A stretch of DNA of 64,000 bases from Sphaerodactylus townsendi. Its lineage: Eukaryota. Both the position numbers and the translations under genes were made by a program. Of this stretch, positions 1,297-31,137 are shown piece by piece. The notes under the pieces were generated by a model, which was not told the origin of the DNA, did no database searches, and was given only the letters and a program-made list of their open reading frames with translations. Each line of letters begins with the position of its first letter. The stretch's first letter is position 1. Where the stretch lies: the NCBI RefSeq assembly GCF_021028975.2, contig NC_059433.1, positions 62,496,001 through 62,560,000 of the forward strand, read 5' to 3'.

Positions 1297-1300
1297 CCAT
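1297..1300 (-). CDS. ELOC: Elongin C, first coding bases (ATG G) at the end of the 56-bp exon 1297-1352; remaining CDS lies left of the window
   Basis: Minus-strand exon ttttccatttgtttccag|CTCCTACTGC...GAAGCAAA...GATAAGGAGAGATGG|gtaagt resembles the mammalian ELOC exon that ends in ATG G (protein starts MDGEEK); position head-to-head with TMEM70/LY96 matches human synteny. Confidence 0.75.
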
Positions 1301-1352
1301 CTCTCCTTATCAAATGGTTGTGTTTTTGCTTCTGCAGTTTTTGCAGTAGGAG
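1301..1352 (-). other. ELOC: ELOC 5'UTR part of the start-codon exon
   Basis: Strong acceptor (pyrimidine tract + CAG at 1353-1370) and GTAAGT donor at 1291-1296. Confidence 0.7.
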
Positions 1353-5334: not shown

Positions 5335-5535
5335 TAAGAGGCCAATAACATCTGAAAGACTTAACAACATTTCTGACAGGATATGAACTTTCATGAGTCA
5401 CAGCTCACTTCTGCAAGTATCTGAAGAAATGAGCTGTGATTCACAAAAGGTCATATCTTGCCAATAATTCTGTTAGTCATTAAGGTACTTCTTGTTCTTT
5501 CATCATACTACAGACAGATCAACATAACTACCCAA
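5335..5535. mobile_element. Penelope-like inverted (palindromic) terminal-repeat remnant with degenerate hammerhead motifs
   Basis: Imperfect palindrome centred near 5416; arm CTGAAGA-AATGAG-CTGTGA-TTCAC-AAAA and its inverted partner. Confidence 0.55.
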
Positions 5536-5557
5536 ATTAAATTAAAGACTGTTTTAC

Positions 5558-5629
5558 CTCTGTAGCAGCTGAAGTTGTGATGAAAGTGTACCAGAAAGAT
5601 CCCTCTGTCCATATGGTTTTAATACATAC
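5558..5629 (-). other. ELOC: Candidate alternative 5'UTR exon of ELOC (72 bp)
   Basis: ttttacttgtag|GTATGT...CTACAGAG|gtaaaa on the minus strand, between the CpG-island exon and the ATG exon. Confidence 0.35.
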
Positions 5630-6735
5630 CTACAAGTAAAACCTCTCTTTACATGATCTCATTATCCCTGTCTCTCTCCACTTAGGTGTCCCAATAATTT
5701 TTTGCTCATAGTATTCCTTTCTCTATTTCCACCATCTACAGCTGCCTGGGGTCTCATGTTCCTACAAACAAGGCCATCCTTTATTTTACTTAGCAACCCC
5801 ATTTTTGCTGATTCCATATCACCAAAGTAATGCCCCCAAATTGTTAAGAATGAATGTGAAAACATTCTGTCTTATAACACAGCTGCATTAAATAACCTTG
5901 TAACCCTTTTCAAGTTCTGTAATATTCTGAAGTTTCCTACTGAATCTAAGATTGTCCTTATGTACGCTATGAAGTAAGTCCTACAGACCTCAGCAAAACT
6001 TCAAAACATTAATAGAATCAGATATTTTTTTTAAAAAAACAACAGGGGATGCCACACATTGATGCCCAAGCTACAACCCCCGCCCCCAAATATCTTTCAG
6101 GCCTTATTCTTATTCTCAAAACTCCAAAATTATTAGAAAAAGGCACAATATAGTACATCACAATATTTGGGAAGACATGGGAGCAAAGTGCCTTGACAAA
6201 TGACACTGGATAACAAAGGAAAGAAATCATTTGCAGAATACGATAGGAAAGCAGAATTACAGCACAGCAACCATGCTGGAGGTAAAGAAATCTTTGCTTT
6301 GAGTCCCATTACATTAGAAATGTAAGACGGAAATCATGCGAGAACGGTCGGTTACGCTTGGAAATAGACTTCTGGGCCAAAAGAAATTCCACAGAGAATG
6401 CAACTGGAGGAGGGAAGGAAAGGATAGGGACACATGCATATGTGTGTGTGTGTGTACACCCACCCCCATAAATCACGCTGAGGTCTTCCAGAATACAGGG
6501 AAGAACGCGGGGCGTGGACCGTCGTGAGCGATTTTCAGAGAACAAGTCTATCGCTCAAGGCACCGAAGGGGGTTTCCCTGAGGTGAGGGAGCAGTGCTCC
6601 AGGTCTGCGTTTCAGAAAGGATAAGAAAACGCCCAGAAGACATTTGGTTCCTGGACCTATTCCAGCAGCTTCAGGAAAACAGACCCCCACAGAAGGCAGG
6701 AAGAACTTCGCGCCCTCTCTCGGGCTCCCACTCAC

Positions 6736-6860
6736 CTGCGTCCTGGCAGAGCCCGAGGATATTCACGGGGCCGCTTTGCAAATCCCCGTTGGGTTCCTGC
6801 CGGGCCAACTGCCCTGCTCAAACCACTTCCGCTGGGTCACAAGCATAAGCTTCCGGTCGG
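6736..6860 (-). other. ELOC: ELOC non-coding first exon (TSS approximate)
   Basis: Perfect donor CAG|GTGAGT at 6736/6735 inside a CpG island; ETS-like CGGAAG motifs near 6827-6855. Confidence 0.65.
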
Positions 6861-7540
6861 CGAGGCGCAAGCGCAGAAGGAGCTGATGAGCTGCCAAACT
6901 AGCCTTTTATTGCATCAGCAAAGTGTGGAACTGACGGTTGTTTTGTTTGCTGACTGGATTTCCTCGTTATTTTCGACCTCTCGTTTCCGGAAAGAATACA
7001 TGTTCTATATGTGCCAAATATAACGATTGGAACTCGTTATAAATATGCTGTGCGGGATCACTCTGAGTTAGTCTTAAAACAATCAGATACCATCGCGTGC
7101 AAGCTTTTGACTTCACAATTTTTCATCGTCTCGAAAGATCTTGTTACCCCAGTCTCTCTTTTTATATTTTATTAACTCTCCTAATGAAGAGCTTTGGATG
7201 CCTAGAAAGCTTTCACAGTACGTTGAATTATTGGCGGGGTGGAGGGGATCTTGACAAAAGGTTACAAAACGGTTTTTGTTGACTGGATTTTCCTTAGCAG
7301 AAACACAAGAGTCCCTTTGCTTCTAGTGAGGAGATTTCAGGGGTGGACCATAGTTCCCAACAACCGCTCTACGCCATCTCGTTAGTTCCTTTGAATCCAA
7401 TGTAAGGCTTTATTAACTCTTATTGCGCATGCTCATTCTAACGGATGTCAAGTTGCACCCTCAGTAGGACAACCTACAAGTTGCGTCTTAACTTCTTGAC
7501 CCTAAATACAACACTGGTTGGGCGTTTCCGGGTTTGCGAG

Positions 7541-7560
7541 GCATTCCGGGAAATGTAGTC
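7541..7560 (-). promoter_or_regulatory. ZNF143/THAP11 (ACTACA-SBS) motif
   Basis: Reverse complement GACTACATTTCCCGGAATGC matches the ACTACAnnTCCCrrnATGC consensus enriched in bidirectional promoters. Confidence 0.75.
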
Positions 7561-7599
7561 CTTGTTGTGCGAATGAGCTCTAAGTGTCTATGCGAGGCG

Positions 7600-7778
7600 A
7601 GAATTTTGTACCGCCGTGCGGGATAAAGGACAGATTCACGCGAGACTTAACGGACTGCGCAAGGAAGAAAAGAAGCGCAACTTTGGAAAAAAAACACCCT
7701 CGCCTCGCGCGCGCAAACAGGTTTGCTGTGACAGTTTCTGCCGCCCGGTCGTGCAATGTTGTGTCGTTTCACTCGGAG
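7600..7778 (+). other. HAUS3: HAUS3 non-coding first exon (TSS approximate)
   Basis: GAG|GTGAGT donor at 7778/7779; matching strong acceptor ttcctttttctttgcag at 10269, upstream of the ATG. Confidence 0.6.
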
Positions 7779-8559
7779 GTGAGTTTAACGGGACTTGCTG
7801 CCGAGTCCGTTTTTGCCGAGGAAGCAGTTTTCAAATTGGATTTAAAAATTTTGACCTTTATGTTGCTGAAATTCAGATATGTGTTACCTATTTATCCTTG
7901 GCCACATCAATCTTCACTGGAGATCTAGCAAAATTTAAAAGTTCATATGGTGACAGCACCCTGTGGCCTGACAAGCAAATATGAAATTGCGGGAATAAAT
8001 TAACAAACCTTTAATTTAAACACAACAACTTTCTATCATTTAGCTATAAATAGTGAATACATATATGTATATATGTACAGCACAACTCAATTATACAAAA
8101 TCTTCAGTGCCTTTTAAGAAAAGTACTCAAAACAGTTACAACTACTAACAGTTCTCAATAAATTAAGAACAGCAAGAAAGTCCAAACTATTAATAAAGCA
8201 GGGCTTCTTTATCTCATCTGTTCATCTGCATAGGATGTAGCTGCTGCAGGTCTTTCTTCAACTTGTGCCTGTAAAAAAATAAGTAATTCCCTCAATTGAG
8301 CTGTCAGCCTTCCTTCTGTTGCAGGCCAGATCAACTGAGGAGGGTGGGGCTCTTGCTGTTGGCAATAAACAAGCAAGCTTACCAACTGCACATGCTCATT
8401 GAACTCTGGGCCCTAAAATCCAAGCAAAACACAAATACTAAAATGTCATGGGTTACAGATGCTATACTTTATTTTGTATTTATTTAACATGTTTAAATGG
8501 TATAGTGAATTCCTTAGCAGGCAAATGGATTTTCGTAGGTAGAGAGTGACAAAAACCAC

Positions 8560-8785
8560 CCGGGAGTTCTTAACCCTTTTTTGTGCCAGGGACCCTTCTT
8601 AAAATAATGCCTTTACATCCATAAAATAATATACTTAGTGTTAAAAGGAAGCCATATATGTTGATATATGGTTATGTTGAATTTCAGTTAAAGGTCAGTG
8701 AAAATAAATATGTCAGTTTTCCCCATTCAAGTTCATAGGCTCCCTGAAATCTGTCCACAGACCCCAACTTAAGAATCCATGCTGT
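8560..8785. mobile_element. Old hAT-type MITE
   Basis: Degenerate termini GGGAGTTCTTAACCCTTTTTTGTGCCAGGGACCC ... GACCCCAACTTAAGAATCCATG. Confidence 0.45.
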
Positions 8786-9578
8786 AACCCCTCTAGACTG
8801 GAGGTTAAGTAAAATAGATGTAATATAGAAACAAGAAAAGAAAAAAAGTCACTGGCTTATGAAAAAGGCTCAGCCTGCAGTTTTTGTTGGGATTATTATG
8901 CAAACATAATTGGATTACACACATGCAAATACTCAGGGCACCTGAATTTCCCAGCCTTTTCTTTTTGTATTTTGTTGAAGGTAGTTGTTTTCTAAATTAC
9001 TAAATTCACTGACAGAGAGGTGAAATGTAAATGTATCATATAAAACAGGTTTTAAATAAGATCGCTAGGAACCTGCCCATGGCAGGAGGATGGCCTCTGG
9101 TATGATCTCCTGCCTCTTTTTCCTGGACTATGCCCTGTTCAGGATAAAGATGAGAGTGTGGTTGTGCACACGAAGTGACAGGAGGCTGCTTCCAGTGGAG
9201 AAAATAGTACTGAGTCTAAATAGGCATTAAAGAGTCTTTTCTATGCCCTTCCTGAGCACATACAGCTGTAATGCCCCTGACTGAAATGAGTTCAGTTATT
9301 TGCTAGTCAGTCAACTGAGAAAGAGTAACTTGAAGGTCCCTGTAATCATCCCTCCTACTTTGTTTCAACACCCAGGGGCTTGTCACTCTCCAGAACTGGA
9401 TTCGGGAAGGAGGACTGCCTGAACCCAGAGTTGACCCTCCCTTAGGGAAGCATTTAAAGGGTGTGCCCAGAAGCAGTCAGGATAGAAGAGGCAGACCCAC
9501 TATAAAGCAGCTGGGAATAGGGAAATGGTGAATAACTGGGTGGTGTGGAACTCTCTCTATTAATCTGTCCTGGGGTGT

Positions 9579-10109
9579 TGTCTTACAGCAACGGAGACAG
9601 CATGTCTTTTCGACAAGTGAGAGAAGCAGGGAGCAACTCTGCCATCCTGTTTCCCCCCAGGCCCTTTTATTGACAGTTTACAAGAGGAAAAACAAACAGG
9701 GCAGGCAGGCAGAAGAAACACAATACAATGGACAGGGCAAAGAGCACAGGGGGATTTGGGCAGGAGATTTGGCATTTGCACGTACACACATTGGAGCTAG
9801 ACGGTCTGCAATGTCAGCAGTTTTCTCCGAAACCACACTTGGGAAGGAGAGGTCAGTTGCACGTGAGAGGCCTTTTTCCAAGCAGTGTATTGCCGTACTC
9901 AGGCGCCCCCCCCCCCCCGATGTTGGGGGGCCCTTTTCCAAGCTATGTGCTGCCGTACTCGAGAGCCTCCCGGGCACTGTGAGACCCCTTTCCAAGCAGA
10001 ATGGCTGCCATACTCGGGAGCCTCCCAGGCACTGTGCCCCCCAACACTGGGGAACTTGCCCTTCTAAAAGCAACCCTAGACTCAGACCTGATAGCACCAG
10101 CTGATGACA
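9579..10109 (-). mobile_element. Putative solo LTR with three ~57-bp internal tandem repeats, in HAUS3 intron 1
   Basis: TGTC...GACA termini, minus-strand AATAAA near 9666-9671, three CCTTT(T)CCAAGC...TGCCRTACTC units at ~9871, ~9931, ~9986; no clear TSD. Confidence 0.4.
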
Positions 10110-10380
10110 CCAGGTTGAGGATCATGGATATTTTTATTGAACATTTCTTTGTAATACTGCGGTGTTTGGCTATTTGTTGGATAACTGGGTTTTTAAAAAT
10201 TATTGTTATTGAAATTGTAAATTGTGTAGGAATTTACAGTCCCATATTTGTATTCCTTTTTCTTTGCAGAGATTTAAAGTCGATCACTATGAGCATGTTC
10301 TACTTTTGTTTGGTATAGATACTTCAGGAGCCTCCTAGTATAGTCATTAATATCGAAGGTTGTAGGCTGACTCTGAAACC

Positions 10381-11292
10381 ATGAATCGTGGAATTAAGTT
10401 TGTGGAAAGTCTGAAGAGGATAGGGTATTCAGAGGTAGCTTCTCTGAATGGAGAAGACTTTGATTGGTTGTTTGAGACGTTGGAAGATAAATCATTTTTG
10501 GAATGGTTTTGTACAAATCTGACTGAGCATCATGCATTATCTGAAGAAGAGCTGCAGACTTTTAACAATCTCCTTAATTCTACAAAGCCTGTGCTAGAAG
10601 AGGCAGCTCTGGATGAAGTTCTTAAGACCTGTAAGCCCCTCGATTTGAACACCAGTAACTTTGAAGAAGGAAATCTTGAGGCACTAGAAGATGAACTTCA
10701 AGCACTCCAAAAGATTAAAAATCTAAAGATTCATCATCGTAACAAACTTCAAGCAATGACTTCAACCAGTAGCCTTCGGTCACTGAAGCTTAAAGAGACT
10801 GCAGAGGAAACAACTAAAAGCCTGAAAGATGAGCAGGCATTGTTCACTGGCATGAATACAAAGATAAACAATGAGCTGAAATCTCTTACTGAAAGAGTTC
10901 AGAAGTTGACTACTTTCTTTGCTGTTCAACCCAGTCAGAAAGGGCAAGAGCCTCATTCTGTGGTGTTGTCCCAGCTTGCCTTAGATGACTATTTGTGCCA
11001 GGAAGAACAAAGCACTGCAGCCCTTACTCTGTATACAAAAAAACAGTTTTTCCAAGGAATAGCCGGGTTGGTTGAAAGTTCAAATGAAGAAAAGTTTCAG
11101 CTTGTTGATATAAGGAGTTCGTTCACTGACACTGAGAGCAATTACATTTCTGAGGAGCAGCTCGAGCTTACCAGGCTGCAGATGGCTTATGTTTGTGCTC
11201 AGCATCAACTAATTCAGCAGAAAGCCAAGGATCTAAGCATGAGATCAGGTCTTCAGTGGGCAGAGGATAACATTTGCTTTTTAAAGAAGGTG
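10381..11292 (+). CDS. HAUS3: HAUS augmin-like complex subunit 3, coding exon 1
   Basis: MNRGIKFVESLKRIGY...LNGEDFDWLFE...FLEWFC...QEEQSTAALTLYTKKQFFQGI are HAUS3 signature segments; donor GTG|gtaagt. Confidence 0.97.
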
Positions 11293-11429
11293 GTAAGTCC
11301 TGTTGTTTTCACAATCATAGCCAAGTTTTAGTGCATTGTATTAACATAATTAACAGAATAAAGTTAGTTAATTTCAGTTGCTCCCTGTGCTTAAGAAACT
11401 GTTCCCAGGCTTTGACCTTCAAGAACAGT

Positions 11430-11890
11430 TTGTGTTTTGTGCCATCAAGTGTTTTGTGCCATCAAGTTCCAACAACCTTGGATGAATATTCATGTCCTAT
11501 CATTAACAGCATTGCTCAGGTGTTACAAACTGAAAGCTGTGGTTTCCTTTGTTGAATCAATCCATTTCATGTTGGATTTTCATACCACCTTCAATTTTTC
11601 CTAGCATTTTTATCTTTTTCACTGTGCAGTAGTTTCAGTTTAGTCATTATAGCTTGATTTGAACCAACATGTTTGTCTTTTTGGCAGTCTATTGTATCTG
11701 TAAAACTCCACTCCAACACCACATTTCAAGTGAATTAGCTTTTTTTTCTGTCAGCTTTCTTCATTGTCCAACTTTCACATACATGTATAGTTATGGAGAA
11801 TATCATAATATTAATTATCTTGATATTGGTCACCAGCAGTATTTCTTTTTACTTAATTATCTCTTCTCGTTCCTGACTGCTCTTCCTCTT
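11430..11890 (-). mobile_element. RTE/BovB-like LINE fragment in HAUS3 intron
   Basis: CTCCAACACCACATTTCAA...TTCATTGTCCAACTTTCACAT resembles antisense RTE/BovB ORF sequence. Confidence 0.5.
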
Positions 11891-12220
11891 TTTTAATGAG
11901 CTAATTTCATTCAAAATTTTTGTAGTTTCTCTAGAAACTTATTTATTTACATTAGTTATAATTAAGCATGGGCCTTTGGCTGTCAAAATACATGTTCATT
12001 AAGAACTCTTTATAAGCATTCATTCTTGGAAAACTGTGTATATACAATTATCCTTTGATAAGAATGGCTCCTGCAGTGATATTTAAATCATGAAAAAAAC
12101 TTGAATGCTGCCCCTCTATAAAAATAAGTTTATAGTAGTAATTTGGGTTTGTTAGATGTATGAGCACAGACTAGACTAATAAGCATATGGTTTACAGAAT
12201 CTGGTTTGGTTTTTTTCCAG

Positions 12221-12660
12221 ACTCATGGAAAAGAAAATTTTGAAGCAAGAATTTCTAGTTTGAACAATGAGATCTCAAAAGTAAAAAAACAATTGTCTAA
12301 GATAAACAGTGAGACCCTGCCTTCACTAGTAAAGAAGGATGCGGAGTTATTGAATATGCCAGTTGTGAAGGGCAATTTTGATCTACAAATTGCTCGGCAG
12401 GACTACTACACATCAAGACAAGACCAAATTTGTCATCAGTTGCTCAAACAGAAGGCGTCGTTTGAAGTTCTTCAGTTGGCTTATGAAATTGAGTTGAGAA
12501 AACTTAGGGATAACAGCCGTCTCCTGGAGAAAATGGTACAAGATCTGAAGCAGAACAATAACGTTTTGGAGCGGACTCTAGAAACAATGTCTGATCCATC
12601 TATATCCCAGTATAAAATACCAAGAAGCACTATTGACTCCAGAGATAATGCTACACATAG
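12221..12660 (+). CDS. HAUS3: HAUS3 coding exon 2 (440 bp)
   Basis: ttccag|ACT...; LLNMPVVKGNFDLQIARQDYYTSRQ...QKASFEVLQLAYEIELRK...TIDSRD; AG|gtaggc, phase 2. Confidence 0.97.
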
Positions 12661-13039
12661 GTAGGCAGCTGCTGATGTTCTGTGAAATTCTGTGTTAATA
12701 TGTAAAGCGTATTGTTAAAAACTGACAATTATATATTTGTTTACATAATTTATACCCCACCTTTCTGCCCTAATTAGAGATTAAAAACCATTAAAACCAA
12801 ACAAAAACACATCATTAAAATCACATCTTAAAACAGGGCAAGAAGGAGGGATCACAGAGGGCACAAGAGACAAAACAAAAGTGTGCACAGATTGGTGGGA
12901 AATGGCATCAAGAGAAAGATGAGACACCCTGGGGGCAGTGGATTGTCTTGCTGTTAGGACTATGAAGACCCTCTTCTAGGTTGCCACCTGCCTAATCTCA
13001 GGAGGTGGAGGCACCCAAAGCAGAACCTCCAAAGATGAC

Positions 13040-13262
13040 TGAAGAAGAGTTGGTTTTTATACCATGCTTTTCTCTATTTTAAGGAATCTCAAAACATCTG
13101 ACAATCACATTCCCCTCCTGCCTCCACAACAGGCATCTTGTGAGGTAGGTGCGACTGAGAGAACTGTGATTAGCCCAAGGTCACCCAGCAGACTTCATGT
13201 GGAGGAGTGCAGAAATAAACCCAGTTCTCCAGATTAGAGTTCACCCTTCTTAACCACTAAGC
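13040..13262 (-). mobile_element. Squamate tRNA-derived SINE
   Basis: (GAA)n tail, CCCAAGGTCACCCAGC core, CTTCTTAACCACT head on the minus strand. Confidence 0.65.
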
Positions 13263-14132
13263 AGTCATAGCTGGTAAAAGGTGGCATTTCCGGCCACAGT
13301 TGCTACCTGCTTATCCAGCAATAGGAGTAGCTCCAGGACATCTCTGAACTACAGTCTTTCCTTCAGGGGCTTACACAAAGATCAGACCTTCCATTTACCA
13401 GTAGAAGTTCCACCTTATTGGGAATAAATTTCAGTTTATTAGCCCACATCCACTCCAAAACTCTCCAGGCACCGGTTCAGGGTTGCTGTAACTTTCCTGG
13501 AATTAGCTGGAAATATATAGAGCTGAGTGAATATTGCTTATATTGGTGGCAGTTCAGGCCAAATCTTTAAATGACCCTATCCTGCGGTTTCATTAAATCC
13601 ATTCTATGGAAGTAAGTTCAGCTGAAACCAATGGAATTTTCTTCAGTAGATTGATTTGACCCTTTAATGCACTGATGTAACAATTGGAGTTCTTTCGTCC
13701 CTTTGTCTTCCACTAGTAGTCCCTTCCGGAACCAAGGAAAGTGGATTCCTAGTGATTGTTGTACCCATTTAGACAGTAGCTGTTAGGAGGTTGCACTGTG
13801 AACAAAGCACAGCTACACTGATGGAATGAGGGACAATTTCACCCTGTCCCCTCTTGGTGCATCTGGCTAAAAGTATCTAACTACCCTAGGAATTGGCTTC
13901 AGAAGGGAGGGGAAAGAAAGCTGCCTGACCATCAGTGCATTCTGCCTTCTAAGATTCTGCATTCATGTGTTACCAATCTGTTCAACAATGTTTGGGTTTA
14001 AAATTAATTAGTCTGGCTACTAAGAAAATATGTTACTTGTGTACTGCTTTGCCAATGCTTTGTTTTTGGTGTTACAGATCTCCAGTAGGCAAGTCTTGTT
14101 TTTTCTTTAACTAACAGTTTTATATCTTGAAG

Positions 14133-14358
14133 GTTGTATCAGCTTCTGGAAGGAAAGAATGCAAACCAGTTGTTCAGAACTAATGAAGGCCTTGAGCAGG
14201 TGGCTGAAAAGCTGCGTCTAGACACAGTGTCATTTCTTGATCAATTAGCAGCGCTGAGTCAAGAGCAAACTCTCCTTCTGTCAAAAATGGATGCTGATAT
14301 AGTTACTCTTCGTGAGTCTGTGTACTCCAGAGGAGATGCGGTCTCTCTTAGTAACCAG
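14133..14358 (+). CDS. HAUS3: HAUS3 coding exon 3 (226 bp)
   Basis: tcttgaag|G TTG TAT CAG = (R)LYQLLEG...QLFRTNEGLEQVAEKL; CAG|gtaagc; phases consistent with neighbours. Confidence 0.95.
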
Positions 14359-15103
14359 GTAAGCAAGTAGATTAGACTCAAGAATATATTTCTCTTAAAT
14401 ATGCAGGTATTTGGTTTCTTGGGTGTTGGTAGCAAGTTGACAAAATACTATAGCAGGGTATCTAAAAATTAGGTAGCTCGTGGCACATGCTCCTGGTGAA
14501 TGGCATCCTGGCCTAGGTTAGCCCTTTCTCTCTGCCCTTCCATTCCTCAGTAGCTGAGGCATTCAGTGCTGTACCCTAACTCCTGCTCTGGGTTTCAGTT
14601 TTCTCATTACTTTTCCCTTCTAAAGTAATTTGTCTTTTCTCTGGTACCCCAAACCATGCAGCTACAGCAAATGCTGGTCTATCATGCTTCTGTCCTACGT
14701 TCATCATGGGAAATGTACGTGCCTAGTGGTCTTGGTGGCTATACCAATTAAAATATGGGTTTTGGTTCAGGCAGAAGCAGCTTCAATGTTTCTAATTGCT
14801 TCTGCATCCTGCAAAGCTCAACAATGCACAGGTGTTCCCAAGAGAGCCAAGAATTTGGGACGGAAAAACTTGGTGGTGATTCTCCTAAATGATTCCTTGC
14901 CTGTTTCTCCCTAATTCAGCATAAAAGCAGGCTTCCATAGAATCCCAAAGCTTAATATTTAAAGAAGCAAATGGAGGAAACATATGGCTTGTGGCTATTG
15001 AAGGCTGGGAACTTAAATTCTAAAATGCAAGTTGCTATTTACCAATATTCATATAAAAGTATAGAAACATGTAAACTTATTTTTGTTTCTGTCTTTTATT
15101 TAG

Positions 15104-15316
15104 GAACTGACCGAGCAGTTTCATCAGCTGGAATTTCAGCTAAATAAACTAAATCAGCTTACTATGGATTTTCTTGCTGATATAAAAGCTAAGAAGAAAG
15201 TTTTGGAGAACAATAAATTACAACAGATTGAAAGAAAATTATATGTTTACTTTTTTAAAGATGAAGAACGCTTGAAGAATGTTGTAGAAAGAATGGAAAA
15301 ACAGGCAAAGACTTAA
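15104..15316 (+). CDS. HAUS3: HAUS3 coding exon 4 (terminal); total CDS 1791 nt, 596 aa
   Basis: tttag|GAA CTG ACC GAG CAG TTT CAT: ELTEQFHQLEFQLNKLNQLTMDFLADIKAKKK...ERKLYVYFFKDEERLKNVVERMEKQAKT*; not in ORF track. Confidence 0.95.
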   Translation, partial: ELTEQFHQLEFQLNKLNQLTMDFLADIKAKKKVLENNKLQQIERKLYVYFFKDEERLKNVVERMEKQAKT

Positions 15317-15454
15317 GTTATTTGTTTGGAAGATTACATTTTTATTTCATAAAACTGAATTTTAATTGGCATGACAAATATTTGTTTTTATGATGAATTT
15401 TGAAATGTTGAATTTAACAAATGCAAGGAAGAAAATGACTGTTTCTGCCACAAC

Positions 15455-15555
15455 AATAAAGACACCGAAAACACCTACAAGTACTGTTAGTTGTTTACTG
15501 GACAACTTGTTTTGGATTTTTTTAAGGTGCTGCTTTTTGTTCTGTGGCAAATAAA
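15455..15555 (+). terminator. Candidate HAUS3 polyadenylation signals
   Basis: AATAAA at 15455-15460 and 15550-15555; a distal one at 17195-17200 is followed by a T-rich tract. Confidence 0.45.
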
Positions 15556-15649
15556 AACCCTAATTTACAAAGCTCAGTGATATAAGACATTTTGCAAGTG
15601 CATATCATCTCCATTCCAACAAAAAAGGCAGAGTATCTTTTCACTCTTG

Positions 15650-16165
15650 GGCTCTTTCCGCATGGGCCAAATGAAGCGTCCCAGGGACGGCAAAAACGCC
15701 ATCCCTAGGAGAGCGTTCGCATGGCCACCGTTGCTGCATTGCAGCAGCGCCGTCCTCCCTTTCCCCAGGCGGAGTGAAGCTGTCCCTGACAACCTCGCTC
15801 ATTGAGCGAGGTTTTAAAAAAACTGCGTCTTCCTTGCAGCATGGTGCGAACCGCACCGCAGGGAAGCTGCCCCTTTCCCTGTCACTCCCACTCACCTGCC
15901 TCTTCAGCGTCACTGTGGAGGACTGCAAGGACCCGCCCATGCTGTCCTCCGACCTCCAGGGGTCCGAGGGCAGCGTGGGCGGGTCCCTGCAGCCCTCCAG
16001 AGCGACGCTGGAGAGGCAAGTGAGTGGGGGAGGGCAACCGAGAGGCGGCTTTGTGTAGAGCCGCCTCTCCAGCTAGGGAGGGAGCCGGGACTGCTCGTGC
16101 GAACACCTCCACAGGCATAAATTATGCTGGTGGAGAAGCGCTGTTGCCGCCTTGCGGAAAGGGCC
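15650..16165. mobile_element. PIF/Harbinger-like non-autonomous element (516 bp, GC-rich)
   Basis: TIRs GGCTCTTTCCGCA / TGCGGAAAGGGCC, 3-bp TSD TTG, internal inverted repeat 15890-16030. Confidence 0.8.
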
Positions 16166-17879
16166 TTGGCTAAAATAGAGAAGGCCCAACACTTACTATG
16201 ACTGTTTGATGTAGTGTTTTTATGATAGTTCTAATTTTATTCTGCTCATTGCTACCTGATACTCCAATAGTTGGTGGTACCTGTACCCCTCCCCAAAGAA
16301 TTAACAAATGCTAATGTTACTAAAAAGCAAACTACGTATTAGTAATTGCAAACAATTTAAATGTTCTATTATTATTTTAGCATTCTAGAAAAGACTTTAA
16401 TCTGCCTTATGTGATTTTGATTTGGCTTTTCACAATAGGTGCCTGCAGGTTTAAGGATTATGGCTGCGTTTTCATGCAGTGCAGAGCATTTGGTCAAGAT
16501 CTTAAACAATTCTTTTTAAACTCAGTGGGCCTCACTTCTAAGTAATTTAACTGTAAAAGTTGATACTATTAAAATGTGAGTTACAGTTAAATAGATATGT
16601 AATTGCGGTGTGCAACTGCTATACATTTTTAACTTCTCAGTGCATTGTGAATATTAAAATGTGTAGATTTTTTTATCACATTCAAATCCTACCAAGGCAA
16701 GGTGCTCAGGGTTAGTTTTAGTTCTATTATAATTTCTGCTTCTTTTCAAAGTGCAACTAGTGGGACTGCTTGCTTGAACATACAGGGCGGAAAAACTGTG
16801 ACATTTCTTCCCACTGGGAGAAAACACCTTTCAGTTCCTATAACTTTTCTCCAGTGAGAGTTAAAAACTGCTGACTGTAAGCAAAGTCACACCCCAAACA
16901 CAGACAGTTCTCAGCCTTTTAAGGGACTTGTGTGTTTGTGGTAGAGTAACATTTGATTTAACTACTGATCTTTCTGTTGTCAAAGAATGCCATTTTTTAC
17001 TTTCTTAGCAGAAGGCTTTGATACAGTTTTAAGCTAGCACCAGAGTATGCAGCTCCTCTTGAACTTAGGGCAACGGTGTGTTTCTATCATACCCTAAGAG
17101 CATCTGTGTTACTGTTTTGTTTAATAATCCAGCCTGTTGAAGACTAGATACCCTCAAAAACTTGTACATTATTTTTAATAATTTGTTTGGTTTTAATAAA
17201 CCATATTATATGACTTTGGTTTTGATTACTTTTGTTATTTTATGATTTTTTTGGTTTTTTGTGGAGCAGTACAGCAATCTGCACCATCTGCAGACATGGA
17301 ATTTACAGTCTCATTAGCATTGCTTCAAAAGAAAGTCATTTATAGACAAAATCCCATTATCTTGTGCAGCCATCACATAGGGTACATAATGGAACAACCC
17401 TGGGTTGCCTCCCCATCAAGAAACCCTGTTCTTTTAATAAGATTTGTACCTCCATTCTATGACAAGCTTCTGCTACCCATTTTAATAGGATATTTACCTC
17501 CCTGCTATGACAAGATTCTGCTACCCGTTTGCACACCTTAAACCCCTTTTCATGAGACATGACATTTTTATCCAGGCCTGTTGGCAAGTGTGCCTGCTCT
17601 TCATTTTCCCTCTATGCCTCTGCCCAGAGGGGAGGGCAGAAGGAACTGCCGGCTGCCAGCTGGGAGCCCAGCTGGTGGGGGGCAGGGGAGAGCAGGGTGG
17701 GCCATGCCCTAGGGGAGGCGTGGCCATGCCCTAGGGGCGGGTGTGGCCCCACCCCCGAACTGCCTCCCCTCTAAAAAATCTATACCCACGTCCCTGAGTT
17801 AGCTCCCTGCTTTTCTTTTATAGTAGAGCTCAATTTAAGCAGGACCCGTTTAGGATTGCAGACCTTAACCATCGGTATA

Positions 17880-18560
17880 TAGTTACGGTGTAAAATTCAG
17901 CCATGATACTTTTGAAACACCCCGGGACAGTCTCCCAGCCGGGGTGGTGCCAGGATTAGGTAGTGAAGGGAATCGCCGACCCGCGCTTCTTTCAGGATAT
18001 AAATCAGCCAGGAGCACGTTCCTCCCCCCACTGGCTCCCCAGAAACGTGCGCGATAATAAAAGTATACTCGAGCGGAGCTTCTGCAGTTCAATACGAAAC
18101 TAAGATCCGCAGGCCTTCAAGGCAACATAGGCAGACGCGAGCTGCTTGGCTCCTCCTTTACAGTAAAGCGGCACAGGAAGAGGCAGGGCCCAGTGGGTGG
18201 AAAGGCCGCTTGTTCCGCACGGTGGCTTTAGCAGCCTCGCTGGCCACAGGAGAGTGCCGGGCTGGGGCGCGGGCAATGTTGCTGCTGGCTGCGGTAGGAG
18301 GGTGCCGAGCGCCAGGGCCAAGGTTGCACGGTGCCGGGCGGTGCAGAGTTCTTCGGCTGCTGGAGAAATGCTCGGTAACCGGCTGGCACCCGCCAGTCCT
18401 CGCTCCAGCCTCGGGCTGCAGGCCGGAACCGCGAACTGGATGGCACAAAGCAGCTCGAGCCTTCCCGAGTATGGCGGGAAGCAAACAGGTGCTGCCTCCT
18501 TAAACGCTTCCTTCTCCACCCGGGTGACCAGCCGAAGGGAATTTCTGAAGGGCTGAATTT
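17880..18560 (+). promoter_or_regulatory. TMEM70 CpG-island promoter
   Basis: CpG-dense region spanning TMEM70 exon 1. Confidence 0.7.
18276..18488 (+). CDS. TMEM70: TMEM70 exon 1 (mitochondrial targeting presequence)
   Basis: MLLLAAVGGCRAPGPRLHGAGRCRVLRLL...SKQ, Arg-rich and acid-poor; CAG|gtgctg donor, 213 bp, phase 0 as exon 2 requires. Confidence 0.8.
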
Positions 18561-19834
18561 CTAAAAAGTGTCATGGTCAGCGTGGTGGGTGCAGGCTGTG
18601 TGTTTGTGGAGTAATGTTTGCGTATGCTCAGGGGCATTCTTTTTAATGTAACTGCTCCCCAAAAAATCCTTTCAGAGACTAAGTTGCACAAGCAACAGTT
18701 GAAAGCACAGGGTGAAAAAACCCTGCCAATCTCCTGAAGGACTCAGGGCGGCTTACAAATAACAGCATATTAAAACAATACAATAGAATGCATAATACAA
18801 AAAGATATACATTATACATCAAAACCAGATTACAACAGATGGCATAGAAATTTTAATTGCATGTCTTTGAATTTATTCGTTTTCTGTGATCACACTTTCA
18901 AGACTGAATCTCTAATAAATGTTTTAGCAAGCACTTTGTTCAGGAATAGGGAATGCAAAGACAGGGCTGCTGTAATCACAGCAAATCTGACAGTAGGAAG
19001 AGAAGCCTATAACTGCAGGGCTGGGGGCTTTTGTTCAGCTGTTTCTCCAACAATGTGAAATTTGTTAAGAAACTGCCTTAACCTGTGAATTTGTTAAGAA
19101 ACTGCCTTAACCTGTGCTGGGTACTTCAGCACCAACAATCTTGGCTTCAAGAGAGGTGTGATGTCTGCAAAGAAGTGGGATTGGGTCTCAAACAGTTAGA
19201 GAAACTTGAAAACTATAACTTTTCTTCTGTTTAAATTGGCTCTTAAATGGTGGGAAGTAAATCTACCTCACGTTCCAGATTATGCGGGGGGGGGGGGGGC
19301 TGATTATAATTATTCAGTGAAGAAAGACACTTCAGGCATGTTCAAAGATGCTTTGTTTCAGGTTCCTGGCCGAAATTAGAATAAACCCAAGATCAAATAG
19401 GTTTTTCCCCTATTTGAATTTGTCCAAATTCAATATTGGTTGTATAGTGTTCTTTAATATTTTAGGGATTAATATAATTAACACTACATACAAAAGGCTA
19501 CTTGAAAAGTGTGTTTGTTATAGGTATGGTTTTGTTGTGGGATTCACTGTGGACTTCAGTAGATTGTTGTTATAGTCATGAAAATCTAAATTTGAGGGCA
19601 TGTATAACATTGGCAAATGAACAAGTGAATGAGTGGATATAAGGACAGATCTTGGTTTGTTGCAGGCCCTCGTTGGATACCATCTTGGGGCAAGAAATGG
19701 TTTGCCTCCCATTGACTGTGAGAAGAGCATCATTTTCCAGCATGGGTCATTGGTTGTTAATGTGTGTACAGCCAGTTTGAGCTGAGTGCCATATTTTAAT
19801 GTTCTAAGCTTGTTGTAACCTGCCCAGAGCCCTT

Positions 19835-20032
19835 NNNNNNNNNNNNNNNNNNNNNNNNNNNNNNNNNNNNNNNNNNNNNNNNNNNNNNNNNNNNNNNNNN
19901 NNNNNNNNNNNNNNNNNNNNNNNNNNNNNNNNNNNNNNNNNNNNNNNNNNNNNNNNNNNNNNNNNNNNNNNNNNNNNNNNNNNNNNNNNNNNNNNNNNNN
20001 NNNNNNNNNNNNNNNNNNNNNNNNNNNNNNNN
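19835..20032. other. Assembly gap (N run) in TMEM70 intron 1
   Basis: Run of n characters. Confidence 0.99.
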
Positions 20033-20067
20033 GACGCCTAATATTGTGCATTATCCTCATCCTCAAG

Positions 20068-20179
20068 GTTCTGTTTTCTCGTGAGACTCCTCTTTGCTGT
20101 TTCAGCACATCATCCCTACATGACAGTTCTGAACTTGGAAGATTGGTTTACTGTGGAAATTTGGCCAAGTTGGTACTCT
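20068..20179 (+). CDS. TMEM70: TMEM70 exon 2
   Basis: cctcaag|VLFSRETPLCCFSTSSLHDSSELGRLVYCGNLAKLVL T|gtaggt, matching human SEDGRLIYTGNMARAVF. Confidence 0.9.
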
Positions 20180-20789
20180 GTAGGTATTTTTGTGTTTGGC
20201 TTTTTTCTGTCTCTTGTTTCTACATCTTTTTAAAATGTTGAAAGTATTTTTCCCCCACGGAAAATGAAACAACAGGTTTCATTTTGGAAGTATATGCTAA
20301 CAGCAGAAAATGGAATTCTTCATTTAAATGATTTTGCCATGCTAAGCCATTATTTCTAGTCCATTGAATGAAGTAACTCTGTTTAGGGCAGCAATTTTAA
20401 TTCACAAATGCCAGGCTAGGCCCTTGCCTGGGAAGAGGGGTATCTGCCCCAATTTGTTGCGTAACTCTAAACTAGAAGAAATCCAGATTCTGTCAGCTGC
20501 TTATTCTGCCTGTTTTGATCTTTCATACTTGGGCAGGGCGAGAGACAAGGAGATGTATGTATGGTAGCACTATGCATTCTTTGTAGCTTTGGTTCACCAC
20601 TTCCACAAGATAGTATGGCTAGCAGAAGCAGTCATAAATATTCTGCACAGCTGATCCAGTTAAAGAGCATTATGGCTGGAGTGGGAATATGCTAATGGGT
20701 AGTTCAGAACGGGTTGCCAAGAATGGTAGGATTCCCAATGTGCAGTGCTTGTTTAATCAAAAGGAAAAGCATGAATGAGTTTCCAGGTA

Positions 20790-21098
20790 TGTTTTTATAG
20801 CTCAGAACATTTCATCGACATCCAAGAGCCTGCGGCCGAGGCCAGTTGCTTCATATATTGTGTCAGGAAAACTCAGGCTTCCTTGGATATACATCTCCCC
20901 TCAGCAAACATATATCTAAGGGAGCATGAGTTTTCCGACACAATATATGAAGGTGCTCAGGAGCAGCAGCCGCAGAAGGCCATTGCTTTCACATCTTGCA
21001 TGTGAGCTCCCAAAGGCAACTGGTGGGCCACTGCAAGTAGCAGAGTTCTGGGCTAGATGGACGCTGGTCTGATCCAGCAGGCTAGTTCTTATGTTCCT
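20790..21098 (+). mobile_element. CR1 LINE 3' end fragment
   Basis: GCTAGATGGACGCTGGTCTGATCCAGCAGGCTAGTTCTTATGTTC tail, same family as the full-length copy at 32.9 kb. Confidence 0.7.
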
Positions 21099-21678
21099 TT
21101 CGGTGAAGCCTGATGGGTGACCTTCAGCTAGCCACCTACCTATGGGAGGGGAAGGGAAGAAGTTGTAAGCTGCTTTGAGTCTCCTTGTGGTAGAGAGAAG
21201 TGGAGTATAAATCCACCTGTTATTCTTCTTCAAGAGCGGCAGACCATCTCCTGGAAGCACCCTAAAAGACTTTGGGTTGGATTATGCAATGCATGGACAG
21301 GAAAGGAAAAATAGACTTAGTGCAGCTCTACATGCAAGCAAAACAGCAGTGTACATTTGGAGCAATGAAATGTACAACAGGTTTCATTTAATCTGGTTTT
21401 GCAGTTGCATCAGAAGAGATATTGTATGCTATGTTTTGCATATGCAAAAGAGGTAGGGAGGGATACAAGCAGTTTCACTCAGTATAAGCAGATAGTGAGG
21501 AGTAATGTTAGCACTTCATTGATGCAAGGATTGTTGTGCATGCAGCATTTGCTGTGGAACCAACCTTATGGGCTGTGTGAGTTATTTAATGGTTGCATGT
21601 TGATAAAGTATATTGCAAACTGCAGAGGAGGTTACTGTTAACTTAATTTTTTACCTTTACTGTCTCTTTCTCTTACAG

Positions 21679-22130
21679 GTGTGAAATTTTTCTCCTACTC
21701 TACCAGCATGTTTAGTCTTTGCATGATGCCTTTCATCATCTCCACAACAGGGATAAGTTCTGACAGCCTGCCCTTGCAAATTGCCTTTTATAGTATTATA
21801 GGATTCTTTACATTTGTGACACCAATTACCTTGCATTTTATTACAAAGGGCTACGTGATTCGCTTATATCATAAGGCTAAAACGGACACCTACACGGCCA
21901 TTACATACAGTGCCATTTTGGCAGAAAAGAAAACTGTATTCCATCAGAAGGATGTGAAAATCCCGGACATCAGCAAGATGTTCACAACATTTTACGCTAG
22001 AACAAAATCAATGCTTGTAAACCCAGGGCTATTCCATTATGCTGAAGACTATAACCATCTTATGGGATATGATAAGCCCTTCACATTTGACCTGGAAGAA
22101 TCAAAAGAATCCATGGAAGGCAAACTCTAA
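21679..22130 (+). CDS. TMEM70: TMEM70 exon 3 (terminal); total CDS 777 nt, 258 aa
   Basis: cttacag|GT GTG AAA: VKFFSYSTS...[18 protein letters not shown]...[12 protein letters not shown]...[15 protein letters not shown]...[10 protein letters not shown]. Confidence 0.97.
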
Positions 22131-26185: not shown

Positions 26186-26294
26186 ATGTTCCATTGTATT
26201 TGTTTTATTCTGTTGGCTTCTGGATTTATTGTGGCACAGGAAAAACATCTGCTTTGTAGCACATCTGATTTGGAAATATTATATTCTTCCTGTG
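26186..26294 (+). CDS. LY96: Lymphocyte antigen 96 (MD-2) exon 1
   Basis: MFHCICFILLASGFIVAQEKHLLCSTSDLEILYSSC G|gtaaga: signal peptide plus the first two conserved Cys; 109 bp, phase 1. Confidence 0.9.
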
Positions 26295-27152
26295 GTAAGA
26301 AAATTATCAACTTGATTTCATTTCCCATGCTGTTAAAGACCAGTAATGCGTCTCATTATTAGAAGTGCTAATACTCACATTGCTGTTGTTGCTTAAGGAA
26401 TACTGCATGTTCTAATTTGTGCTAGAGATTTTGACTTGTCTGTCTTCAAAGGGATAACAACCATTCATTCTTTGTTCCATTTATACTTTGTTGAACTTGA
26501 GATTTTTTGAACTTGGCCCAAATTAATTTAGTCTGCCTCCTGAATCGGTCATTTTAGACTGCAGGTTATAGAAGGCCCTGCATCATGCAATGTGCTAACA
26601 ATATCTTTTAGACTTCCCTTCCTTTATTTTTTATTTATGTATTAATATTGTATGCATATATCATTATAAGGCTGTTGTGGTATTGCTGATTAAAAAAGAA
26701 AACACCAAACCATCGGGGTGGAGGTGAGGGAAAGAATGGCAGTCATACTGGCAGAGGCAAGGAAAGTGTGAGAAAAGGTGTAATATGGCTGTTCCTCTGC
26801 CATTGCAAATGATTCTGCTATTTATTTACAAAATTTATACCCTGTCTTTCTGCCCTCATCTGGGCGATGGGAGCTACATGGACACAGTTGCCACAGGCCA
26901 GGAATAAAATGAACTGCCCTATTAACAGAGGTTTAATGTGTGGAAACAACATGGAGGTAAATAGCATCACGGTGTATATAACACTCCATTAAGCTAGTAT
27001 AAAAGGGACAGGACATTTTCCCCAGACAGTAAGCAGTACTTTACCTGCATAACTGTTGCCATCTGGAATTGTTTTTGTATTTCAGCATGGATCTAGGAGT
27101 GCTCAAATCTTTCCTAGAGTTTTATGACATTGTTAAATTTGTCCTCCCATAG

Positions 27153-27242
27153 GTTCTACCACTGAAACATTCTTCTTTGGGGTGGAGCCATGTTATCTTA
27201 ACGGCTTTTCAAAATGGAACGGAACTATATTCTGGATTCCAA
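27153..27242 (+). CDS. LY96: LY96 exon 2
   Basis: cccatag|...STTETFFFGVEPCYLNGFSKWNGTIFWIP A|gtatgt; 90 bp; matches MD-2 VNPC...IFYIP. Confidence 0.92.
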
Positions 27243-28730
27243 GTATGTTGTTCTTGTATTTTTCATAGCATTAGAATAGTTACTTTGCATATCTGAAGAA
27301 GGCATACTTTATGGAAATCTGCTTTACTCATCATTATTTCAATGAGTGAAATATGTACGTAGTAAAGGACTGGTACTCTCCAAACTGAATATATAACTCA
27401 ATCTATCATATTTTAGGCAACCCTTCCCAGAATCCCAGCCAGGCTCTACATATTCTTGGTGGGCTGCAAGTTTTGAAGATCTGCTGTTGTTCAGATTGTT
27501 AGTGATTCCTAGTTGTATTAGTGGGACAGTGTCAACTGAGGAAAGCCCTTGAATGGATTGAAGGCTGTCATGTTTATAACTACCTTGCAAGCATCATAAA
27601 TGTCCACCTTTTCCTTAAATAATTTGTTTATTGTGAAGGTCTGTTAACATTTGTCAGATGCCTTTTGTGAGGAAAACAACAAAATTAAGATTGGTAAACA
27701 GACTTTTTGAATTCAGCACATTCAAATTTGGTAGAAAAAGGAGTTCACTGACTTGTTAGAACAAATGCCTGCTACACTGTTCTTTCAAGGAATTTGTGGC
27801 ATATGACTGAGAAAGTCTCTGAAATGCCAGAATGTCAAGAACTGCATGCTGTATGTAGTCCCGTGAGTAGTTTTTCCAACTTCCATGGTAGACATGATTT
27901 AAAAGAAGAGAACCCATTGGAGGGGGAGGAGTGGACTGCTTAGCAAGTTTTTATATTATTCCCATTGAAAGTTGCTTTTATTCCATGCTTTTATTCCTGA
28001 GGGGAAAATGTATAACTACTCAAATCCCCTACACCCACCCCCAGTATGGGTAAAACCAGCTCGGCAATTTTGGGTGGACAAGTGATAGAAGTAAAGAGCT
28101 AAACAGCCTCTCTCTCACATTAGTTTGCCTCTTTAAATTGCTCCCCTATAGTTGCAAATTTTTTTAAGTTAGGGAAATAATTATGGCATTATGTGTAGTT
28201 CCAATGTTGGTGAGCATGTCAACATTTTATTGTTTTCCTGGATCTTCCTTATTTGCTTATGCTTCAGTGAAATGGTTATCCTAGTGTTCAGTGGTGCTTC
28301 CATCAGCAAATGTTTAATTTTATGTTTGCTGCTGAAAGAAGATGTTGGGGGATTAGTAGACTGAGAAAGCAGTCTCAGCAGGTCCCCTCTGAATTCTCTC
28401 AGGCCTATTTATTACGGATCATTCGCAGGAGTGTTATTTTTTAAAGATGGCTGCATGATTGTGTGAGGAAGAATTTGGTATAACCGGTGACTGTGTGCCT
28501 CCATTTTGCTTACATCGCTTCCTTTTTGACACCAAAGTTTTAAGTGTGAGGATGGTGGTACATAGAACAATCATTTTACTTGTCCTGTTTTAAGATGTAT
28601 TAAGTAATCCATCTAGCCTAGCATTCTACTTCATACACTGGCCAGCAAACAGAGAGGCCAAGGCCTTCACCCAATGTTGGTCCTGGTATTCAGAGGTTTG
28701 CTGACTCAGAGTATGGAGGTTCTTCTAAGT

Positions 28731-28989
28731 CAGGAGTCGGCAACCTTTACCTCCCAAAGAGCGATTTGGACCCATTTTCCACAGCCCCAAAGATCTACCA
28801 AGCCGGAGAGGCAGCTCCGCACAGAGCCGCCTCCGGTTCGCCTCCTCCACTCACCTTTCCTTCCAGAGCTGTTCTGGAGGGCTGGAGGGACACGCGCACG
28901 CTACCCTCCAACCTCCAGGCTACGCAGAGCCACAGTATAAGGCTGAAAGAGCTGCATACGGCTCCGGAGCTGCAGGTTGCAGACCCCTG
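28731..28989. mobile_element. hAT (Charlie-type) MITE in LY96 intron 2
   Basis: TIRs CAGGAGTCGGCAACCT / AGGTTGCAGACCCCTG with perfect 8-bp TSD TTCTAAGT (28723-28730, 28990-28997). Confidence 0.9.
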
Positions 28990-29458
28990 TTCTAAGTCAT
29001 GAGTCAAATTCCCTCTTAAAATTCTCATAAAAATGCGTTTGTGGCTATTGTCTTCAGTGAACTATGCCATTTCATTACTCATTCAGTAAAGTTTTTTTTT
29101 TTTGCTGATCAGAATCAACTTCTTTGGGTGCCCCAAAGTATTCTAGTATTTTAGCAAAGAAAGCTCTCTATTCACATTATCTACTTCATGCATAATTTAA
29201 GAAACCACTATCAAATGTGAAGGAAAGTGACCAGCCACTATCCAGTTGTGATAGAAAGAATAATGATGCATAATTTGATTTTTCCTAATGCTTGCTATTT
29301 TTCTGGCTATGCTGCTGCACATTACAAATATGTTTTCAATCAGATTATCATATAAAATGCATTATCAACAGACTTACCCATTTAAATGAATTGTTCTCTG
29401 AGAAAATAAAATGAAAATGGATGTAATCTTTTGAAGTATCTGCATTCTATTTTTATAG

Positions 29459-29587
29459 AGAGAGATTTAATCTTTCTCAGAGTGACAATAGCCGGATGGT
29501 ATGAAGCTAAGAAAGTCTTAGAATGGAGATATATTGCTTGCACAGGTGAAGATGATGAATATTCATATTGTGGAGCTCTGAAGGGAG
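29459..29587 (+). CDS. LY96: LY96 exon 3
   Basis: ttttatag|(K)RDLIFLRVTIAGWYEAKKVLEWRYIACTGEDDEYSYCGALKG G|gtaaga; 129 bp; matches CRGSDDDYSFCRALKGE. Confidence 0.95.
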
Positions 29588-30012
29588 GTAAGAGTGAAAT
29601 ATAAATTTTTGTTGTCATAAAATCTAAATGGAAACTATAGCCTTGCTAGGAGAAGCTATAAGCAAATCAGTGTATATGAGTAGTGTCAATCCTACATTAT
29701 GGACTGCATCCACGTGGTGAGATTTCAATGTCCTCCATGGGGCAATTAGGCTAATTTTAAAGAAATATATGGTGGACAAGGCTTGGCCAAGGGGGCATGT
29801 GGTAGCATGATTATAGATCTGTACTCAGGTAGATCACATGGCAGCCCTGATTTTGGCTTCTTGTTTTTGACCTCTGACTCCAGTTTCCCTAACCTGTGTT
29901 GGTGTGGGAGGGGAGGGGGGATTCTGAAGAAACTGATATACTTGCAACTGGGAAAGAATTACAAGATTATGATGGTAGTTTTTATATCTTAATAATAATT
30001 CCTCTTTTGCAG

Positions 30013-30065
30013 AGACTATCAACACAACTGTGACAATCAAAGGTGATAAAGGAAACTATCTAACG
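30013..30065 (+). CDS. LY96: LY96 exon 4
   Basis: cttttgcag|(E)TINTTVTIKGDKGNYLT|gtactt; 53 bp; ETVNTT motif. Confidence 0.92.
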
Positions 30066-31023
30066 GTACTTTTTCAGAGTTATATTTTCACAAATGCTGT
30101 TAGAAAAGTTGAGAATTTACTAGTTTACAACTTTTTGGGGGAGGAAACTCAAATTCTTCCATAATCAAACCCAAATGGGTGGATTCAGGCCAACAGTCTT
30201 ACTGGACTTCAGTTGATTCCATACAAGTACCTAACATCAAGCAGTTCTTGCTCTTGGAATACAAACTCAGTTTCTTAAATTTCTTAATGACTACTAAATT
30301 TTAGTTGATTTTTTAACTGCAGTTTGTCAAGTGAAAATGGGAAGCAGTGATTGAGACCTGATCATTAAGTAACTGATTTCCAGCATCACAAAGTAGCCAG
30401 AATTAGCTTCTTCTGAAGAAAATTAACAAGTTCAGTCCAATGAATGAACAAGTAAATGATAGATATTCACTGTGGCTTAAAAAAAAAAGTTCTAATAATG
30501 AAGATGTAGCCAGTCTATCACTAGGAAGTAGAACTGGCATGCTGATCAAAGACCAATCACACAAAGCTTATAGTTCTTCAATGATACATAAGCTGCCCTC
30601 TTCCTAAGGCAGTAGATCACACACAATGATAGATTACAATGCAATGTGTACTGTTATTGTATGGCTTTCTGTAGTAGATCACCAGAAGAACTGCTGTCCT
30701 GGAACCAGCCTTTTGAGAGGGTTGCAATGAAATAAACACATCCCAGTTTACATACAAACCCTAGAGCAGTGGGGCAATCTAGTAAGTATTGTGTGATCAA
30801 TGAAGCTATTGCTTGCCAATGGTCTAGGAGTCAACCTGCTCATAGAGTCAGTCTAGAGTTTGTGTCCACTCCTTGTAGCAGGTAGAGTCCTTGAAATGAT
30901 GACATTGCTGAGGGAATCCCTGTCTTGTGAATTAGCTTCAGCCTCATTGAATTCAGTAGAACTTGTTCGGTCTGTCTTAGTATATTAATTTGTCTAGTAA
31001 TTAAATCTTTTCCTTTGTTGTAG

Positions 31024-31137
31024 GGAGAATACATGGTAACTTTCAAAGGATACTCTGGCCATTCTGAAGCAGATTTGTTTGTATGTATGAATTATACCTT
31101 AATTCTTAAAAAGGAGCCTTCCTACGATTTTGTGTGA
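31024..31137 (+). CDS. LY96: LY96 exon 5 (terminal); total CDS 495 nt, 164 aa
   Basis: ttgttgtag|GEYMVTFKGYSGHSEADLFVCMNYTLILKKEPSYDFV*; last conserved Cys; AATAAA at 31253-31258. Confidence 0.9.
   Translation, partial: GEYMVTFKGYSGHSEADLFVCMNYTLILKKEPSYDFV

Follow-up and report, generated by a model that had tools for sequence, protein, structure and literature searches.

What becomes of a gene that borrows its promoter and first exon from a nested partner when that partner moves elsewhere in the genome? The question is raised by a 64,000-nucleotide (nt) stretch of the Sphaerodactylus townsendi genome (NCBI RefSeq assembly GCF_021028975.2, contig NC_059433.1, forward-strand positions 62,496,001 to 62,560,000; hereafter "the window"), in which HAUS3, the gene for augmin subunit 3, lies immediately upstream of TMEM70. 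In zebrafish, mouse, and human, HAUS3 and POLN, which encodes DNA polymerase nu, share one promoter and first exon, according to the accessible text of the HAUS3/POLN locus study (Takata et al. 2015, PMC4591814); that study covers these three species only and makes no mention of lizard, anolis, reptile, or snake. Here we present evidence that the relocation of HAUS3 is, with near certainty, real. An intact HAUS3 with its ancestral introns probably moved as a block of DNA, likely on the squamate stem, and the former host, POLN, was probably lost from squamates. On its own, the relocation adds one more example to a known type of event and is a modest matter of synteny that public annotations already imply; the probable loss of polymerase nu is of greater interest.

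The window gene contains a complete open reading frame of 596 residues with a single terminal stop, read from four coding exons of 912, 440, 226, and 213 nt, all with GT-AG splice sites (Table 1). Its translation was identical to the public protein P0001 (HAUS3, Sphaerodactylus townsendi), with 100% identity over the first coding exon. P0001 matched the Pfam family HAUS-augmin3 (PF14932, E = 5e-76), and residues 2 to 595 matched a 603-residue PDB chain of HAUS3 (E = 8e-195). In a gene tree (FastTree, 33 sequences), gecko HAUS3 formed a clade within one squamate clade, sister to tuatara. Splice ends, reading frame, and these matches confirm the intact four-exon gene described in the initial annotation of this DNA, and by sequence it is the HAUS3 orthologue. 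One predicted noncoding exon and four coding exons agree with the 5 exons of mouse Haus3 given in the accessible text of PMC3009607. Two RefSeq records that carry one identical protein fit two 5′ untranslated region (UTR) forms of the gene. Two small differences from related proteins were also observed. The S. townsendi stop codon lies 7 codons before that of other geckos, with the former tail still legible past it (window positions 15314-15334, a stretch with zero differences to a short-read contig from run X3). Relative to Tiliqua, Podarcis, and Python, gecko HAUS3 has one additional residue at the donor of the first coding intron (11290-11292), which is consistent with a 3-base shift of that donor.

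In a tblastn search of the window with 120 amniote POLN proteins, the sole matches were to HAUS3 exons, through a single fused model from alligator; a profile hidden Markov model of POLN gave 0 matches at E ≤ 1 among 2935 six-frame peptides of the window. In control searches, proteins of tuatara, turtle, and elephant found each of the four HAUS3 exons as well as exon 2 of TMEM70, which is 112 bases long. The place that POLN occupies in other vertebrates is taken by TMEM70, which begins 2.7 kb past the last HAUS3 polyadenylation signal. The locus in the window is not a nested HAUS3/POLN locus, in which HAUS3 is followed on its own strand by the coding exons of POLN. It resembles the published nested locus (PMC4591814) in the HAUS3 protein, the four coding exons, the intron positions, the predicted noncoding exon 1, and the CpG-island promoter; it differs in having no POLN exons after HAUS3, TMEM70 downstream, and a putative ELOC gene head-to-head upstream. 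The absence of POLN exons and the uncoupling of HAUS3 from POLN, both proposed from the first reading, are thereby borne out for the window.

In other amniotes, HAUS3 stays with its host. Among the named pairs that could be read unambiguously, both genes were on one contig in all 5 (Pangshura, Gavialis, Rhea, Dromiciops, and Petaurus); a Trachemys pair was set aside because its HAUS3 record represents two contigs. Rhino, human, pig, alligator, and a catfish have fused HAUS3-POLN models. HAUS3 and TMEM70 lay on separate contigs in Dermochelys, Rhea, and Mauremys, the Mauremys pair possibly coming from two assemblies. Given this outgroup linkage, the window order is derived and not ancestral to sauropsids: turtles, crocodilians, and birds keep HAUS3 beside POLN. 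Accession order in UniProt (HAUS3, POLN, TMEM70) was considered as a synteny proxy for tuatara and rejected, since the POLN isoforms alone are scattered over the range. The Platysternon HAUS3 record (P0013) is labelled "adenosine kinase," apparently a naming error.

To place the move, we used two proxies for adjacency from the protein collection: the size of the contig carrying each protein, and the order of accession numbers or locus tags. HAUS3 and TMEM70 were on one contig in 17 of the 18 squamate assemblies with contig data for both genes. These 17 comprised 2 skinks, 1 cordylid, 4 lacertids, 4 iguanians, and 6 geckos (Sphaerodactylus, Eublepharis, Heteronotia, Paroedura, Gekko japonicus on a 1.03-Mb scaffold, and G. 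kuhli). Snakes, Elgaria, Varanus, Rhineura, Zootoca, Phrynocephalus, and Salvator had one gene only or no contig data and do not enter the counts; Euleptes contributed accession numbers only. Accession or locus-tag numbers of the two genes were at most 14 apart in 12 of 16 squamate species, and consecutive in Anolis carolinensis, Podarcis raffonei, P. lilfordi, P. muralis, and Lacerta agilis. The distant numbers in the other 4 species are not counter-evidence, because Sphaerodactylus is among them and yet the window shows the genes to be adjacent. The HAUS3-TMEM70 order was present by the last common ancestor of geckos and the other sampled lizards. What had first been read as a move in one narrow lineage is common to Gekkota, Scincoidea, Lacertoidea, and Iguania.

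The introns indicate how the gene traveled. The position of window intron 1 is exactly where short HAUS3 isoforms break in two turtles and three mammals; that of intron 2 is where a wombat isoform breaks, and that of intron 3 is where breaks occur in a manatee isoform and in the fused isoforms of mammals. All three coding introns are ancestral, and the move therefore took place at the DNA level, in agreement with the initial argument for transposition or duplication over retroposition. A retrogene origin was excluded on the same grounds. No repeat or target-site signature was found flanking HAUS3 in the window, as expected for an event so old. In DNA-mediated gene relocation, a gene is duplicated and the parent copy is then lost. 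Gecko HAUS3 is like this class in that a single gene changed chromosomes and kept its introns, with apparently just one copy left, as judged from the annotated squamate proteins listed. It differs in that HAUS3 was nested in the first intron of its host and supplied the host promoter, so that a move would silence or free the host.

We searched for that host with a tuatara POLN query against annotated proteins, which gave 516 matches at E ≤ 1e-50. The best 120 of the 516 comprised 93 birds, 12 turtles, 6 crocodilians, 5 marsupials, 3 tuatara, 1 primate, and 0 squamates. In control searches, the best squamate scored 821 bits with a tuatara HAUS3 query (birds, 802; marsupials, 806), and squamates ranked first with a tuatara TMEM70 query. 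In a second, exhaustive search, the POLN part of the rhino fused isoform was compared with cluster representatives, and 12 of 150 were identified by name: echidna, chicken, tinamou, tuatara, ray, two frogs, coelacanth, catfish, eel, bichir, and lungfish, with 0 squamates. The bichir and lungfish sequences, identified last, were divergent representatives that had been suspected of being squamate. In tuatara, the POLN models carry PF00476 and PF18049 and the catalytic motifs, with ∼80% identity to birds in the polymerase part. As judged from annotated proteins, an intact POLN has probably been lost from squamates. This favors loss for a gene that had at first been described as possibly lost or changed in the lineage.

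On human 4p16.3, POLN presumably lies near TNIP2, the two being a few hundred kilobases apart. The accessible portions of a recent survey (Salve et al. 2026, PMC13005343) describe 53 genes missing from 30 annotated squamates, including a chicken chromosome 4 cluster with TNIP2 and GRK4; TNIP2 neighbours are split across chromosomes in Pogona, and IL34 is also among the losses. POLN is like these losses in being present in tuatara and other amniotes, not found in squamates among the annotated proteins listed, and presumably located in a chicken chromosome 4 region that is rearranged in squamates. It differs in that its promoter was also that of an essential gene, which moved away. Within the same portions of the source, neither POLN nor HAUS3 appears in the main text; both occur only in the supplement's list of all human genes. 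For a gene to enter the screen, as described there, both chicken and alligator had to have an intact NCBI orthologue of it. In those two species, the POLN proteins P0247, P0414, P0415, and P0474 carry the NCBI name "HAUS augmin-like complex subunit 3 isoform." Under such a filter, POLN would plausibly have been removed from the 2026 screen. We found no published account of the HAUS3 move or of POLN loss in squamates in a literature search that was sparse in subscription journals.

How, then, might the departure of HAUS3 bear on the loss of POLN? The initial annotation suggested that release of HAUS3 from the overlap could have allowed POLN to be lost or changed. In the accessible text of PMC4591814, the POLN start codon is in exon 2, downstream of every HAUS3 exon, and in that of PMC5472330, deletion of mouse Poln exon 2 left Haus3 expression unchanged and the mice fertile. 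No release of HAUS3 was therefore needed before POLN could be lost. The direction of cause proposed at first is better reversed: POLN relies on the HAUS3 promoter. The most economical path would begin with a DNA-level duplication that set a new HAUS3 copy between the divergent promoters of ELOC and TMEM70, where a single CpG island would drive it and ELOC in head-to-head orientation. Its promoter may have been brought along or captured at the new site. The original copy would then have become redundant, releasing selection on the promoter and first exon borrowed by POLN. Loss of the original HAUS3, the shared promoter, and the non-essential POLN would have followed, in a region broken up in squamates. 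An essential gene moves more safely through such a two-copy stage. A causal link from the HAUS3 move to POLN loss appears to us about evenly poised between true and false. The full proposal, that squamates are the one large amniote clade without DNA polymerase nu, that the gene was lost because HAUS3 moved, and that loss screens missed it through NCBI labels, is a tentative one to which we give somewhat less than an even chance.

A competing account shares both the move and the loss with this proposal and differs in cause only; the same data fit both, and our confidences in the two overlap. In it, POLN decayed first and independently, as a dispensable testis gene, and the compact 8-kb HAUS3 moved separately during the break-up of the region, on a shared branch with a separate cause. 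The position of the POLN exons, downstream of HAUS3 and deletable with no effect on it, favors this order of events, as does the absence from squamates of TNIP2 and GRK4 in the wider region, genes with no link to HAUS3. Tuatara adds a further argument, in that 4 of 4 POLN models (P0279, P0403, P0405, and P0406) already miss some of the thumb region together with the final exons, gaps that may be assembly gaps or early decay. However, the retained catalytic motifs and identity to birds fit assembly gaps equally well, and to have a single locus struck twice independently on the same branch is less economical. We consider decay of POLN before the move a serious possibility, albeit a doubtful one.

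Other observations weigh against the relocation of HAUS3 and the loss of POLN as we describe them. The single miss among the 18 assemblies was Sceloporus, in which the TMEM70 record is on a 2-kb contig. The gene-order survey covers geckos, skinks, a cordylid, lacertids, and iguanians, with snakes and anguimorphs represented by HAUS3 only or by records with no contig data. Tuatara records come without contig data, and the move is therefore dated to the squamate stem or earlier in lepidosaurs. No intermediate two-copy state of HAUS3 was seen among the data examined. The evidence for POLN absence is drawn from annotated proteins and not from genome sequence or reads, and the other 138 of the 150 representatives were placed by best match only; none stood out as an unplaced amniote in this sorting by similarity. 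Median HAUS3 scores were 767 in squamates, 761 in birds, and 795 in marsupials; with squamates near birds and below marsupials, a fast-evolving or partial squamate POLN could fall below the best 120.

These last points lead to a different outcome, in which HAUS3 moved but squamates still carry POLN, driven by a new promoter and missing from protein lists because its sequence is too diverged or fragmented or has not been annotated. There is room for such a gene among the 396 of 516 POLN matches outside the best 120, and POLN is testis restricted and difficult to recover from RNA (accessible text of PMC4591814). Its absence from the 53 missing genes, within the accessible portions of PMC13005343, could also mean that some squamate has POLN annotated; the orthologue filter and the NCBI names described above plausibly account for that absence in our reading. 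Against survival, POLN has been annotated by homology in many draft genomes of birds, turtles, and crocodilians, and also in mammals, whereas no squamate was among the best 120 of 516 POLN matches, although ∼20 squamate species appear among the best 120 of 381 HAUS3 matches. The two divergent representatives identified last were, moreover, not squamate. We regard survival of POLN as unlikely. A still weaker alternative, that the window HAUS3 is a duplicate and a second copy persists at the ancestral locus, would find shelter in the limited candidate set that the homolog search scored (annotated proteins clustered at 90% identity, best 120 of 381 matches). One HAUS3 per squamate species was found among those listed, all in a single squamate clade, and the cluster members read were isoforms or orthologues on the TMEM70 contig; the present-day duplicate that was at first allowed for is thus very improbable. 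Misassembly of the S. townsendi genome is effectively refuted by the cross-species adjacency, since 16 other squamates, independently assembled, have identical neighbours and the N gap at 19835-20032 is inside TMEM70 and outside the HAUS3 boundaries, even though short-read contigs from four runs, which cover most unique parts of 1000-19000, end at repeats, do not span the whole region, and never bridge HAUS3 to TMEM70 (they were not counted as support).

If relocation of HAUS3 was indeed accompanied by loss of POLN, lizards and snakes would be a natural knockout of polymerase nu, an enzyme of unclear job. Mice that lack Poln are fertile and show only a modest change in crossovers at one hotspot (PMC5472330). 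More than 11,000 species would have lived without it for ∼200 million years, which would make it dispensable for amniote meiosis. Comparisons of squamates with tuatara, turtles, and birds could then address crossover rates, gene conversion, germline mutation spectra, and partner genes lost together with POLN. If POLN vanished after HAUS3 left, it would persist elsewhere partly as a passenger on the promoter of an essential gene, which bears on why the HAUS3/POLN overlap is conserved. Nested genes would also constitute an annotation blind spot for loss screens based on names.

Table 1. Features read in the 64,000-nt window, with positions counted from its first nucleotide
Feature	Positions	Strand	Remarks
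Putative ELOC exon 2	1297..1352	-	5′ UTR and first 4 coding bases; acceptor and donor read; remaining gene left of the window
Putative ELOC noncoding exon 1	6736..6870	-	Strong donor after 6736, inside CpG island; 5′ end approximate
CpG-rich head-to-head promoter region, putative ELOC/HAUS3	6501..8000	.	CpG observed/expected 0.76-1.14 in three 500-nt bins
ZNF143/Staf-like motif	7548..7559	-	Just upstream of HAUS3 exon 1; sole match in the window by pattern scan; candidate site
HAUS3 predicted noncoding exon 1	7600..7778	+	Candidate donors after 7720 and 7778
HAUS3 coding exon 1	10270..11292	+	Acceptor 10270; ATG 10381; 912 coding nt (10381-11292)
HAUS3 coding exon 2	12221..12660	+	440 nt; both boundaries coincide with turtle or mammal isoform breaks
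HAUS3 coding exon 3	14133..14358	+	226 nt; mammalian HAUS3-POLN fused isoforms depart from HAUS3 at its 3′ end
HAUS3 final exon	15104..15555	+	213 coding nt (15104-15316); stop 15314-15316; polyadenylation signals 15455 and 15550
TMEM70	18276..22130	+	Coding exons 18276-18488, 20068-20179, and 21679-22130; own CpG island
LY96 (MD-2)	26186..31137	+	About five exons; one matched in PDB, others read by eye

The neighbours of HAUS3 are known with unequal firmness. The first reading placed the gene between ELOC and TMEM70; the TMEM70 side is upheld by homology, and the ELOC side is not, since we take the upstream gene to be ELOC from human exon structure and gene order, with no homology match. The predicted start sites of putative ELOC and HAUS3 are divergent and less than 1 kb apart, and this geometry and the CpG content fit a bidirectional promoter. 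The ZNF143/Staf consensus is associated with divergent promoters.

Downstream, exon 3 of TMEM70 matched PF06979 (E = 6e-43). The public Sphaerodactylus TMEM70 models (190 and 191 residues) lack their beginning, for which the N gap is the probable reason, and the window supports a three-exon gene of ∼258 residues like that of other geckos. For LY96, MD-2 chains were the 10 best of 13 PDB matches to the exon at 29459-29587 (best E = 0.0026); the last exon had no PDB match, and LY96 exons tried singly had no Pfam match. Between HAUS3 and TMEM70, a 68-nt inverted repeat, 87% complementary, lies at 15887-16028 in a high-copy element, and short-read contigs end there. Finally, a decayed long interspersed nuclear element occupies 33000-37100 on the minus strand; one piece of it gave a weak endonuclease match below the Pfam cut-off, and from its motifs we take it to be CR1-like.

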